Positions 4,590-32,137 of a stretch of 64,000 nt of DNA are shown one piece after another. Source of the stretch: a virus; IMG/VR virus record IMGVR_UViG_3300033562_000245, positions 32,001-96,000 of that record; one strand, written 5' to 3'. A program made the position numbers and the translations under genes. Every line of letters starts with the position of its first letter. Position 1 is the first letter of the stretch. Under the pieces are notes generated by a model that had not been told where the DNA came from, ran no database searches, and saw nothing but the letters and a program-made list of their open reading frames with translations.

Positions 4590-5678
4590 ATGAGTATAGT
4601 CGGTGAAATTTATACAGGTGTTTCCAACGTCGTAAAGACTCTTATTGACGCTATTCCAATCGGAACAGTAGAACATAGCGTTACTCAAATGGCTCAGCCG
4701 GCTATGTTGAATCATAGAGTAATTATAGAAGAGAGTCTAGCTAACTCTTCTATCATGCCAGCCGTTATGTCATTCCTTAATCAGCAAGTTGTAGGTTATG
4801 TTCTTACGGCCGTTCAACTTGGAAACTATGTATCTGACGGTAGAACAGTTAAAGATGTTATTTCTAGAATTTCAACCGAGTCCTTTGTAAATTCGGTAGA
4901 CTTGATTTCATTCGACGGTATTCCTAAAGAAAAACTACATCCAGAAACATTAAAAGCTATCGAAGATAAAACAATAATGGGTTTGGAGGCAAGCCAGACT
5001 GTTATTGATCTAGAAACCAAAAGTACAAGATTACTATCCTCTAGAGTTATTGAAGTAGATCTATCTATAGACAAAGAAGGTAAATCGATTAAAGTAAAAC
5101 TAGGCGTGTACCTTCTACCTTATTTTGTTAATACACAAATTATGGGTATACTTCTAGATACCCACAATCAATCCGGATTCTTTATTAGATGGAAGAAAGT
5201 AACGGCAGGTGAAATCAGTTTCTTCAAAGATTTTATTTTCTGTTTCGATCTAATTGAAAAATACAATAAAACTTTGAAAGCTGACCCTAAGAATAAGATT
5301 GGTGATGTTCTTAGAGAAAATCATATGAAAGAATTTCAGTCATATGTTCAGAGATTGAAGAAAGTAGAAAATAAGAATATGAATATAGCTTCTACTATAA
5401 TCATTGCAGACCATAAAACTATTCAAAGAAATGCGTCCGATTCGGGGTCTAATTTGGACGATTATAATACCAGACAAGAATTCTTTAATAAATCTCTAGT
5501 TATGATTCTGGTTGTTGTTGATGATATGTTCAATACCGTTAAGGTATATTACAATGGTATGAAAATGTATGCTACATGTACATTCGATACTCTAAATCGC
5601 ATCGGACAAAAATCAGATTCTTACGATCTTAAGGATATTATTACTGCTTTCGGTGGCAATCAAAATATTAGATACTAA
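4590..5678 (+). CDS. Head protein, phiKZ gp89-like
   Basis: Start better placed at ATG 4590 (RBS AAGGAG); synteny with gp88-/gp90-like neighbours; S-T-E and G-L-E candidate cleavage motifs. Confidence 0.55.
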   Translation: MSIVGEIYTGVSNVVKTLIDAIPIGTVEHSVTQMAQPAMLNHRVIIEESLANSSIMPAVMSFLNQQVVGYVLTAVQLGNYVSDGRTVKDVISRISTESFVNSVDLISFDGIPKEKLHPETLKAIEDKTIMGLEASQTVIDLETKSTRLLSSRVIEVDLSIDKEGKSIKVKLGVYLLPYFVNTQIMGILLDTHNQSGFFIRWKKVTAGEISFFKDFIFCFDLIEKYNKTLKADPKNKIGDVLRENHMKEFQSYVQRLKKVENKNMNIASTIIIADHKTIQRNASDSGSNLDDYNTRQEFFNKSLVMILVVVDDMFNTVKVYYNGMKMYATCTFDTLNRIGQKSDSYDLKDIITAFGGNQNIRY

Positions 5679-19956: not shown

Positions 19957-20268
19957 TTATTTATTAGATGATAAATTTTTCATTATCTCTGATTTTTCTA
20001 TATCGATTTTAATTATCTTCTCTTTTATTCTTTGGAAAGAAGCGTAATCTAAATCTAATATATCGAATAGAGACAATTTAAGTTGGTCACACATATTAGT
20101 TGCAGTAACAACTTCAAATACTTTATCAAAATAGTAACTGGGATTGTTATTTGCATCGTCATAAAAAGATATGTATTTATGACTATTCGTTACTTTTACT
20201 AATTGATCTCTATTGAAACATTCGTCATTCATAATCTGGAAGGCATAGTCTTTATTATGCCCGTCCAA
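19957..20268 (-). CDS. Small ORF, probably the C-terminal extension of 20319..21827 via -1 frameshift
   Basis: TTG start with AAGGAGG ~20 nt away (too far for a typical RBS); the frame stays open upstream through the slippery site at 20361-20367. Confidence 0.6.
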   Translation of the reverse strand: MDGHNKDYAFQIMNDECFNRDQLVKVTNSHKYISFYDDANNNPSYYFDKVFEVVTATNMCDQLKLSLFDILDLDYASFQRIKEKIIKIDIEKSEIMKNLSSNK

Positions 20269-20318
20269 AGTATCTAAGAAGGCTCTCCCCTCCTTATCGT
20301 AATTCTGTATATACCCTA

Positions 20319-21827
20319 TTAATTTCTCCCTACCGACGAGAGTATTCGGTAGGACAGGAAGAAAAAAAGTTGTTGCATGTCCGCCGGATAGATATCTGAT
20401 TTGATATCGTTAGGTGTTCCGCCGCACTTAGGACATTTGACTCCCGGGTATGCCATAAAGGATACTTTCGTTTTCTTGATAAACTCATCCTCAATTCGAG
20501 TCATAATATCTTTTTCTTGAATAACGAAAATATCTAAAGCATGAAGAATAATATCTCTATCTGCAGATATTGACCAATTAGGTCCTTGGACATCAGTTTC
20601 TATTTCAAAGACCCAAGGAAGATAAGAGTAAGAAGCAAGAGACAATAGTTTCTGTACAAAATTCTTAGCTTCCACAGATTCACCATGAAGACCTGAGAAT
20701 AATTTAGCGGCAAGCGTATGTCCAATCTGAAGATATTTCCACATAGAAGGGGTTTCACAGTGAATGGTTACCCCATCAGAAACAATCTTTCTTTCGAAGA
20801 CCAGCTTTTCTTTATAAGCTTTAATCATTTCTAAATTAATAGAATCGCTTTCTGCTTGAAGAACAGTTTTGATATTATCATCGGTCAGAAGTTTATAATC
20901 ATTATATCTGATCTTATTAAGATCTATCTTAACAGTTTCTACGTGGCCACAATCTTTGTGAATACAAGGAATGTTATATTCCAGACCGTCTTTAAATAGG
21001 AGTTGGCACACTGCTCCTATGAGTATATCGTAATCCTGAATATCTAGAGCCTTCTCAAACTCTTTCGACGTTTCCCAATTCTTTAAAGATGAGTCGATAA
21101 TACTACCAACAATAAGATCCATGAACTGCTGTTTGATTCTAAAATCTTGGAATAGGTAGTAATGGCCGCCGTACAACCGACCATAGATTTTATCTTCGAT
21201 ATCAACAGATTCAAAGAATGAATTTAATTCTGCGATTGAGAATGGTTTAATAACCACCCAAATACCTGAATTGAATAAAGGTGTTTTAGCATACCCGTGA
21301 ATATTTCTAATCAAAGATACTTTGCCTTGTTTACCTGATAGTCTTTTGGGTCCTGCTGGTATAGATCCTTGGAGAGGTTCCGGCATGCTTATTTGCGAAC
21401 CAAACATACCCTCAGCAGCAGCAACTCCTCCATGTTTTTTAGCATCTGTCAGCATTTCTGCTATGAGGTTTACATTAGTTTCCATACGGTTCATATGGTT
21501 ATAAACTTCTCTAATTTTAGACTCATAAGAATCGTCATCTTTAAGATTCTTAGTAAGAAGATCTTTTTCTTCTTTGGTTCCTTTATCGAGAATATTAATA
21601 AAAGCTTCAACAATTTCATTGACTTCAGGTCTTGATTTATTGAATAGTACAAGTTCATCGATAAGAGCCGAAGCAGTCCCTATTTTCTTAGGCTCAAGGA
21701 TCTCTTTATCAGAGGAAATAGACGGGGTCTGTGTAGGTATAGTAGGCACTTCAATTACTCGCACAGGTTCCTGCGAAACAGGCGTCGAACTTTCTTCGTT
21801 CGATTTGACATTGTCATCGATTGTCAT
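20319..21827 (-). CDS. phiKZ gp101-like virion/tail assembly protein (T4 gp26/gp51-like Cys pairs)
   Basis: WVVIKPFSIAEL motif; CIHKDCGH and CPKCG Cys pairs; P/S/E-rich N-terminus. Confidence 0.55.
   Translation of the reverse strand: MTIDDNVKSNEESSTPVSQEPVRVIEVPTIPTQTPSISSDKEILEPKKIGTASALIDELVLFNKSRPEVNEIVEAFINILDKGTKEEKDLLTKNLKDDDSYESKIREVYNHMNRMETNVNLIAEMLTDAKKHGGVAAAEGMFGSQISMPEPLQGSIPAGPKRLSGKQGKVSLIRNIHGYAKTPLFNSGIWVVIKPFSIAELNSFFESVDIEDKIYGRLYGGHYYLFQDFRIKQQFMDLIVGSIIDSSLKNWETSKEFEKALDIQDYDILIGAVCQLLFKDGLEYNIPCIHKDCGHVETVKIDLNKIRYNDYKLLTDDNIKTVLQAESDSINLEMIKAYKEKLVFERKIVSDGVTIHCETPSMWKYLQIGHTLAAKLFSGLHGESVEAKNFVQKLLSLASYSYLPWVFEIETDVQGPNWSISADRDIILHALDIFVIQEKDIMTRIEDEFIKKTKVSFMAYPGVKCPKCGGTPNDIKSDIYPADMQQLFFFLSYRILSSVGRN
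20329..20367 (-). promoter_or_regulatory. Putative -1 programmed ribosomal frameshift signal
   Basis: Minus strand: in-frame T_TTT_TTC heptamer (20367-20361), 7-nt spacer, 8-bp stem cctaccga/tcggtagg with a 9-nt loop; the -1 frame continues into 19957..20268. Confidence 0.6.
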
Positions 21828-21858: not shown

Positions 21859-22398
21859 CTACATTAACATTAATTTATTGTAACACGCTTTAATAACAAC
21901 AGCGTCCCACAAAGCATTGTGTTTACAGGGCTCGACTTTTAAAATATCTTTCACAAAGTCTTCTCTGCTTGTGTCGGGATCTACTCCTTTTATTTTAAAC
22001 AGCGTCGATAGATCTAGTGGGATGTAAGATATGTTCTTAGGTATATCAAAAGCAGTCCCAAAAAGATTATTAAATAGAACCCAGTCGTACGCATAACAAT
22101 CAGACCACATTTCTATTTTATCATACGCTGATAACCACTCTAAAAGATATTCTCTTATTTTGTCTTTACCGTGACGGATATAAGTATCTCCAGACTTAGC
22201 TACACGAATTGAATTAGGTTTTAATATTAGTTTGTTTATAATATTAGTTTGTAACCATAGATCAATCTGAGTCTTATCATAATCAGTAAATTCAGCATAA
22301 AACATTTTACTATCGTCGGCTACGATACCTAAGGATATTAAAGTAGTTCCCTGATGAAGACCTGTGAATTCGGTATCAAAAAATAAATTGGTAGCCAT
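21859..22398 (-). CDS. DEDDh 3'-5' exoribonuclease (Rv2179c/RNase AS-like)
   Basis: FFDTEFTG, LISLGIV, FYAE, WSDCYAYDW, HNALWDA motifs. Confidence 0.85.
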   Translation of the reverse strand: MATNLFFDTEFTGLHQGTTLISLGIVADDSKMFYAEFTDYDKTQIDLWLQTNIINKLILKPNSIRVAKSGDTYIRHGKDKIREYLLEWLSAYDKIEMWSDCYAYDWVLFNNLFGTAFDIPKNISYIPLDLSTLFKIKGVDPDTSREDFVKDILKVEPCKHNALWDAVVIKACYNKLMLM

Positions 22399-22404
22399 GT
22401 GAAC

Positions 22405-22878
22405 TTACCTTTCCGGCAATAAAAAGAAATCGGACAAGTGGTCTCCGAATGACATTACTATTTTAATACAACCTTCTTGGTTTTCGCATTCTTTAATCCA
22501 AAGGTCCCAGTTCTCATCTAGTAGCTTAATGAAGCCTTCATTATTACCTCTTTCTTTATACCTTTGGATATACTCATTTTTTAAAGTTATATGCGGATAT
22601 AAAAGAATAAATGGAAGATTCTCTTTAACCAAAGCTTCTCTAACGAGCTTATGACTTGAGACGCAAATATAGTCAACCTTTCCGATTTTTTCTTTAATAT
22701 GGGAAATATAATTCCCAGGAAAAAATTTCTTATCAAATTTACTAGAATCGGAATCTAAAACCGTATCAGGTATCCCATCAGCACTATCAAAAAAGTGACT
22801 CTTTCCTGTACCAGGAAAAGCTGATATTATTATTGTATCTTTAATTATAGATTCAAGCGGCTCTATTTTTATACCCAT
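22405..22878 (-). CDS. Small P-loop NTPase/kinase-like protein
   Basis: Walker A IISAFPGTGKS near the N-terminus; LDSDSS. Confidence 0.75.
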   Translation of the reverse strand: MGIKIEPLESIIKDTIIISAFPGTGKSHFFDSADGIPDTVLDSDSSKFDKKFFPGNYISHIKEKIGKVDYICVSSHKLVREALVKENLPFILLYPHITLKNEYIQRYKERGNNEGFIKLLDENWDLWIKECENQEGCIKIVMSFGDHLSDFFLLPER

Positions 22879-31741: not shown

Positions 31742-32137
31742 ATGAATAAAATAATCGCATGTTTGGTCCTCGTACTACTGACAGTCTCGTGCGCGAGTTT
31801 GCAGAAAAAAGAAGCAAGCAATATACCTACGGTCAGCTATGTATTTGCTTATCAAGACAACTACACAGTAATCACAACTACCGACGATATAGTTATCCAT
31901 ATAACTAACACACAAGGAAAACATCTTATACCTCCGGTCTTTGAACCGACAGGTAATAAATTTTTATATGAAGATACGACTTCTGATAAAAAAAGTAGCC
32001 GCTTCGTAATTAGTGCTATACGGATCGTACATAAAGATCTATCTCAAGATATTATTAAAGTAAATGACCGTATCGATAAAACATGGGTAGTTAAACTTAT
32101 GTATCCGTATGTGCTTATCAATGAAGGCAGTAAATAA
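31742..32137 (+). CDS. Lipoprotein, paralog family B
   Basis: Lipobox LTVSC; KLMYPYVLIN shared with 30816. Confidence 0.65.
   Translation: MNKIIACLVLVLLTVSCASLQKKEASNIPTVSYVFAYQDNYTVITTTDDIVIHITNTQGKHLIPPVFEPTGNKFLYEDTTSDKKSSRFVISAIRIVHKDLSQDIIKVNDRIDKTWVVKLMYPYVLINEGSK

Follow-up and report, generated by a model that had tools for sequence, protein, structure and literature searches.

We found that a gene of a jumbo-phage family, located on the minus strand of a 64-kb stretch of viral DNA (IMG/VR record IMGVR_UViG_3300033562_000245, positions 32,001–96,000), carries an in-phase slippery heptamer close to its 3' end and that a long open −1 frame lies behind this heptamer. The whole stretch is called the window in the following, and coordinates refer to it unless stated otherwise. 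Signal and open frame are present in the sequence, and both are conserved in the related phages, in which the −1 frames are homologous. These sequences suggest, with a probability that we put at roughly 80%, that the locus yields two proteins from one start by a programmed −1 frameshift at a run of T residues. A shift of this kind, fusing the gene of 502 amino acids (aa) to the next open reading frame (ORF), had been proposed in the initial annotation of the window, and the comparison of orthologous loci turned out strongly in its favor (38 of 38 loci).

The run of seven T residues occupies positions 20368–20362 in the minus-strand context ATG CAA CAA CTT TTT TTC TTC CTG, and the heptamer T_TTT_TTC (20367–20361) is in phase with the gene, as had been stated in the initial annotation. 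A backward slip of one base would place the start of the next codon at position 20361 and give the predicted junction ...QQLFF/LPVLPNTLVGR. The predicted products comprise 502 aa when the zero frame is kept and 623 aa when residues 1–489 are joined to the −1 extension; these sizes, the junction, and the −1 frame remaining open through the downstream ORF of 103 aa agree with what had been predicted. Also in line with the initial annotation, this ORF has only a TTG as start codon, at 20268, with a poorly placed Shine–Dalgarno-like sequence (AAGGAGG, about 20 nucleotides (nt) upstream). Counted from the slip, the TTG is residue 32 of the −1 frame, and an ATG occurs for the first time at residue 44. 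For phiKZ the corresponding predictions are products of 533 and 687 aa with the junction ...TFF/YFGGLEVK. Among the window ORFs of at least 100 aa (18,674 codons in an AT-rich window) there are ten in-phase T_TTT_TTN sites. At nine of them the −1 frame is shut within 0–12 codons, and only the site at 20361..20367 is followed by a long −1 frame, which runs for 134 codons and beyond the zero-frame stop. The combination of slip site and open −1 frame is not due to chance.

By its database matches the gene, termed P0001 here, is a member of the phiKZ gp77/201phi2-1 gp136/PhiPA3 gp074 family. P0001 matches phrog_4585 (E 8e-41, residues 63–493), as does phiKZ gp77 (E 8.7e-196). With tblastn, genes with about 23% identity were found in 126 jumbo-phage records, including PHIKZ077 and PhiPA3 gp074, and 201phi2-1 gp136 and Goslar gp081 were reached with a second query. 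Since PHIKZ077 is the phiKZ counterpart found in this way, the gene belongs with gp77, and the label "gp101-like" that it had been given initially has to be dropped. The window gene shares family, slip site and −1 domain with phiKZ gp77, 201phi2-1 gp136, PhiPA3 gp074 and EL gp47, at about 23% identity to the named family proteins; the small ORFs downstream of the family gene include phiKZ gp76.4, 201phi2-1 gp135 and RAY gp266. A phmmer search of 1.84 billion representatives returned 887 matches, and the closest protein relatives of P0001 are P0003 (74% identity) and P0004 (44%). In an alignment of 115 family members C288, C293, C465, C468, F488 and F489 are invariant or nearly so. The AlphaFold (AF2) model of P0001 reached a mean predicted local distance difference test (pLDDT) score of 87.6 and a predicted template modeling score (pTM) of 0.84; in this model residues 484–501, which hold the Phe-Phe and the zero-frame tail, form a predicted terminal helix. 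No Pfam family matched P0001, a search of viral contigs for related loci with P0001 and one alignment found no relative, and megablast of the region found nothing in phages. A search of the PDB sequences with phiKZ gp77 also returned nothing. Foldseek and VIA-align found no convincing match of P0001 to solved structures, an absence that is not decisive on its own. The window DNA probably stems from a microbial-mat metagenome run; roughly one fifth of the gene's sampled words were also found in a 2025 freshwater metagenome, on short contigs of low depth with the slip site outside them.

For the comparison of related loci we used 38 distinct loci, namely the window, 23 named jumbo phages from 12 host genera and 14 IMG/VR contigs (17 IMG/VR loci were read, of which 14 were distinct). 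In all 38 loci the same conserved Phe-Phe coincides with an in-phase T run, and a homologous −1-frame domain follows. The slip site is of the type T_TTT_TTN in 33 loci and G_TTT_TTY in two (PhiPA3 and Noxifer), and consists of the tetramer T_TTT alone in three (pVa-21, L023 and L028). The T run comprises five residues in three loci, six in four, seven in 24 and eight in seven, and is never longer. Behind the run, the zero-frame tail spans 5–44 codons and the −1 extension 134–174 codons, the extension of the window being the shortest seen. In many loci a stop of the −1 frame is found 7–16 nt ahead of the run, yet the frame is never closed after it.

The downstream frame is the −1 frame in all 38 loci, and in each of the 23 named records the next annotated gene lies in this frame. 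A joined coding sequence or an annotated shift is absent from all records examined; two separate hypothetical genes are given instead, the downstream one with internal starts at scattered positions; for RAY gp266 an overlap of 136 nt is shown. We also inspected 153 family proteins, which are the listed phmmer matches (one per cluster of 50% identity, out of the 887 matches) together with closer relatives. All 153 end 5–30 aa past the Phe-Phe and none is an in-frame fusion, a steady avoidance that would be expected if both forms were needed. A 686-aa phiEaH2-like protein was considered as a natural in-frame fusion and rejected: in Machina gp55 (676 aa), a related protein, the extra length lies at the N-terminus, and slip site and −1 ORF are the same. 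The member from RisingSun (L043, 868–2682) is annotated as "putative ZipA-like cell division protein"; this name is probably a misannotation, since slip site and −1 domain are the same as in the rest of the family.

The nucleotides of the T run are more uniform than the encoded protein would demand. The base ahead of TTT is a T in 33 of the 38 loci, whereas 12 would be expected from the third-position use of T in the same genes (P = 8e-13), and for the first Phe codon TTT is used in 35 of 35 cases as against 11.8 expected (P = 4e-21); both P values are inflated by the relatedness of the loci, but synonymous sites are saturated at protein identities of 20–30%. The residue ahead of the Phe-Phe varies over nine amino acids (V, L, G, S, T, A, I, N and E). 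In T4 gp26 the same Phe-Phe is encoded, without a shift, by the nonslippery codons TTC TTT; gp26 stops four codons later, and gene 25 follows with its own ATG. From the codon statistics we conclude that selection acts on the nucleotides at the synonymous positions of the T run and goes further than the protein requires.

The alignment of the −1 peptides of the different phages begins at their very first residues, which are mostly Tyr-Pro, includes several conserved blocks and ends with a C-terminal motif of the G-L-S-F-x-E-F-M type. A start codon is first possible 21–87 aa after the slip, and the first ATG comes 34–139 aa after it, both downstream of conserved blocks. In phiKZ and AH06 (85 aa each) and in AgentSmith (87 aa), for example, the conserved blocks precede the first possible start. 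The window peptide aligns with those of loci L020 and L021 from LPNTLVGR/LSEVGADR through YIQNYDKEG/YLEEYWEKG, and both blocks, including YIQNYDKEG of the window, are located upstream of the TTG. Over the 68 codons before any start, RAY and AH06 differ at 6, 8 and 19 sites in codon positions 1, 2 and 3, respectively, and 17 of the changed codons are synonymous and nine nonsynonymous. Judged by these substitutions and alignments, the −1 frame has a coding function right from the slip site.

The −1 domain is predicted to be helical (pLDDT 73.8). Four PHROG families, 12109, 13274, 7580 and 34704 (86–182 positions, function unknown), all match this same domain, which appears split over four families because the annotated starts are scattered and the entries truncated. 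No Pfam family was found for the domain, a profile search of the PDB sequences returned nothing, BFVD contained no match except neighbors of gp77-like genes, and tblastn of the window −1 domain against phages gave no match.

Table 1. Coordinates of the slip site, the reading frames and the neighboring genes in the window
Feature	Position	Strand	Remarks
Zero-frame gene P0001, 502 aa	20319..21827	−	phiKZ gp77 family (phrog_4585); probably related to T4 gp26/gp51, though remotely
In-phase slippery heptamer T_TTT_TTC	20361..20367	−	codons L487 CTT, F488 TTT, F489 TTC
Zero-frame tail past the slip site, 13 codons (FLSYRILSSVGRN), and TAA at 20321-20319	20319..20360	−	dual-coding overlap with the −1 frame
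−1-frame extension, 134 codons (LPVLPNTLVGR...), and stop at 19959-19957	19957..20361	−	homologous to the −1 domains of relatives
Stop-to-stop span of the −1 frame	19957..20409	−	begins just 43 nt ahead of TTT TTC
TTG, sole candidate start of the 103-aa ORF (19957..20268)	20266..20268	−	as given in the ORF list
8-bp hairpin with 9-nt loop (cctaccga 20353-20346/tcggtagg 20336-20329)	20329..20353	−	7-nt spacer after the heptamer
Rv2179c-like 3'-5' exoribonuclease/RNase H-fold protein	21859..22398	−	PF16473 E 6e-10; phrog_2259 E 1e-52; upstream neighbor
phrog_4182 protein, function unknown	22405-22878	−	upstream
GroEL-like chaperonin, 648 aa	17982..19928	−	phrog_5725 E 9e-25; PF00118 31 bits (below cut-off); downstream neighbor

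We propose the following course of events. Most ribosomes would stay in the zero frame and terminate at the stop 13 codons after the Phe-Phe, giving the short protein. A minority would slip back by one base on U_UUU_UUC, with both tRNA-Phe re-pairing on UUU UUU, and would then translate the 134 codons of the −1 frame. In the resulting long protein the last half of the C-terminal helix would be replaced by a proline-containing linker and a helical domain of about 130 aa, and the ratio of short to long form would be fixed by the frameshift efficiency, as in lambda G/GT. In E. coli, heptamers of the type H_HH.U_UU.Y are among the most efficient ones, and U_UU.[U,C] ranks as one of the three tetramers most prone to shifting (PMC4066793, Sharma et al.). 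This ranking fits a ribosomal slip involving two tRNA-Phe, and it also fits the three loci that possess the tetramer only.

With regard to its function, the protein could be the jumbo-phage counterpart of the T4 proteins gp26 and gp51, the short form corresponding to gp26 and the long form to gp51. In BFVD the family members are followed by a series of models of T4-type "baseplate hub (assembly) proteins" of 245–285 aa (E 2e-5 to 1e-3); these gp26-like matches have a probability of 1.00 and template modeling scores on the target of 0.45–0.58, with predicted models on both sides. A solved structure of gp26 was not found. The GenBank record of DT01 names its own family member after T4 gp26. The jumbo-phage family and gp26 have in common a co-linear CxxxxC/CxC pair, a CPxCG pair and a C-terminal Phe-Phe: the landmarks C82, C84, C187, C190, F204 and F205 of the gp26 family follow each other in the same order as C288, C293, C465, C468, F488 and F489. 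Judged by predicted fold and co-linear motifs, the jumbo-phage gene is probably a remote relative of gp26/gp51. T4 gp26 (208 aa) and gp51 (249 aa) are themselves paralogous; both belong to PF12322 (T4_baseplate; at NCBI "gp26 family baseplate hub assembly chaperone"), and hhalign pairs them with a probability of 97.6%. In the alignment gp51 spans all of gp26 and has some 46 further residues, which begin exactly after ...F-K-L-L, the point that corresponds to the slip site.

There are also clear differences from the T4 proteins. The jumbo-phage protein is two to three times longer, with additions at its N-terminus, and its −1 domain of about 135–175 aa compares with an extension of about 46 aa in gp51. 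T4 has two genes and nonslippery codons, whereas the jumbo phages have one gene and a T run. T4 gp25 and gp28 were considered as counterparts of the −1 domain, and no likeness was found. In T4 the genes of gp26 and gp51 (L037, 5803–7229) are divergently transcribed neighbors. gp51 has CC in place of the second Cys pair, CPxCG, and a newer Pfam release lists its extension of about 46 aa as PF28602, a family that our own Pfam scan of gp51 did not return.

Several points weigh against the proposed frameshift and its connection with T4. One of them concerns the RNA behind the slip site. For the window a hairpin and a pseudoknot had initially been suggested as stimulators, and the 8-bp hairpin, its 9-nt loop, the 7-nt spacer and a gagag about 40 nt beyond the hairpin are indeed present. 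However, the 91 nt after the heptamer fold with −24.6 kcal/mol as compared to −20.5 ± 2.9 kcal/mol for shuffled sequences (z −1.41; 15 of 200 shuffles fold as well), 13% of the segments of equal length from the same gene are as stable, and the gagag pairs locally and not with the hairpin loop in the minimum-energy fold. A common downstream structure was not found in 18 loci, for which z ranged from −2.3 to +2.2. Hairpin and pseudoknot are thus neither significant nor conserved, and because a conserved downstream stimulatory structure is lacking, the frameshift efficiency may be low. Moreover, the phase of the run does not lend independent support to a ribosomal route, since the Phe-Phe is kept at the protein level even in T4. 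That the shift occurs and that it is ribosomal is what we infer from the conserved signal, and the presumed function of either form derives from the remote likeness to the T4 factors; the long product is a prediction from the DNA. The link to T4, finally, is weak by sequence. PF12322 was not found in P0001 and nine other members at E values up to 1, and phrog_150 was not matched. In hhalign the alignment of the jumbo-phage family reached a probability of 41% with gp26 (in the CPxCG block) and of 4.7% with the gp26 alignment. The −1 profile gave a single match in the extension of the gp51 alignment (residues 207–232, E 0.02, probability 2.4%), which is not significant, and against the single gp51 sequence the −1 domain gave nothing in hhalign.

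A further point against a ribosomal shift is that the same two proteins would arise if the polymerase, here a phage-encoded multisubunit enzyme, inserted an extra U at the T run. In favor of this, the signal is a homopolymer, mostly of seven or eight T residues, and a conserved RNA stimulator was not found. Well-studied sites of transcriptional slippage contain longer homopolymers of about nine or more residues, and runs of this length do not occur in our loci, seven of the 38 lineages having only T5 or T6. In the window the Phe-Phe-Phe is encoded as TTT TTC TTC, which caps the run at T7 although T10 would be possible in an AT-rich genome. According to our slip-site census, the in-phase U_UUU tetramer required for ribosomal re-pairing is the minimum that all loci retain. 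UUUUUUU is under-represented in genes in all frames, which has been ascribed in part to transcriptional slippage (PMC4066793). On balance we regard ribosomal slippage as the likelier of the two routes and slippage of the polymerase as unlikely, albeit worth keeping in mind.

We consider it less probable still that the locus simply contains two ordinary genes, with the downstream ORF translated from an internal or noncanonical start (the TTG at 20268 in the window) and the T run being nothing but Phe-Phe codons. Such an arrangement is what all 23 GenBank records depict with their separate downstream gene. The AAGGAGG upstream of the window TTG would also fit, though it is about 20 nt away, and the retention of the Phe-Phe in T4 gp26 provides a protein-level reason for the codons. 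Yet two independent genes would leave unexplained that conserved −1 blocks are found upstream of every possible start in many lineages, that the downstream frame is always −1 with the synonymous T residues fixed, and that the frame often opens 7–16 nt before the run without ever being closed after it. The scatter of the annotated starts, which distributes one domain over four PHROG families, likewise speaks against genuine start sites. An error of assembly or sequencing, or a recent frameshift mutation in what is truly a single frame of 623 aa, can practically be dismissed. The window does come from a metagenome assembly, and the sole run covering the site (depth about 13, T7, no indel) is probably the one from which it stems and provides no independent evidence, but 38 loci, each sequenced independently, share the two-frame layout, the 153 diverged representatives include not a single fused form, and the zero-frame tail is part of a confidently predicted terminal helix.

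The programmed −1 frameshift favored here resembles that of lambda G/GT in several respects. In long-tailed phages a conserved −1 frameshift of the tail assembly chaperone genes has reportedly been described, by Levin in 1993 and by Xu in 2004, 2013 and 2014 (cited in PMC5009743). As in lambda, an assembly gene carries the −1 heptamer close to its 3' end without relying on a strong stimulator, an abundant short and a rare extended form with a shared N-terminal part are predicted, the downstream frame lacks a separate start, and the layout is kept across very diverged phages. The 2016 recoding review describes gpG/gpGT as a 3'-proximal −1 shift in which the long form is rare, the N-terminal part is common to both and a strong stimulator is not needed (PMC5009743). 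In contrast to lambda, the upstream part measures about 500 aa instead of about 140, the heptamer is U_UUU_UUY instead of G_GGA_AAG, the protein family is unrelated and the gene is not located between the tube and tape-measure genes. Membership in the lambda-type tail assembly chaperones was rejected, as neither part matched a chaperone family in Pfam, a likeness of fold was not seen and the genomic position is a different one. Of the initial proposal that the pair is the jumbo-phage equivalent of the G/GT chaperones, the functional analogy of a short and a rare long form is fair, but not the family relationship.

A published report of this shift in phiKZ-like or other jumbo phages was not found in a literature search outside of subscription journals, and phiKZ, jumbo phages, gp26 and baseplates are not mentioned in the available part of the recoding review (PMC5009743). 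If correct, our reading adds a conserved recoding event to the much-studied giant phages phiKZ, 201phi2-1, PhiPA3, Goslar, RAY and PCH45. Two "hypothetical" genes would have to be re-annotated in every such genome, and the four PHROG families would merge into one domain. It would also offer a concrete handle on the assembly of the baseplate hub, for which T4 gp26 and gp51 are still poorly understood, and suggests that the rule of short and long chaperones at a fixed ratio, known from long-tailed phages, reaches these myoviruses by way of an unrelated protein. Tentatively, and with somewhat less than even odds in its favor, we propose that contractile-tailed phages of the T4 and phiKZ types possess their own counterpart of G/GT: a hub assembly factor would be made in short and long forms at a set ratio, in T4 by the paralogs 26 and 51 and in jumbo phages by one gene with a universally conserved, unannotated −1 frameshift, and the added helical domain would recruit a second hub or tube component.

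The neighboring genes of the window are included in Table 1. The profile match of the chaperonin covers only its first 330 residues or so; phage EL and a few other phages are known to encode chaperonins. The synteny of the phiKZ-like phages is different: there a small gp78-like gene and the genes of the virion RNA polymerase are found upstream, and a helicase gene is also adjacent. In phiKZ an element of about 55 nt is present directly after the stop of the −1 ORF (L004, about 4646–4700). The same element was found at phiKZ positions 126769–126821 and 265434–265488 with 86–91% identity; it also matches itself in inverted orientation and is probably a repeated, terminator-like hairpin.

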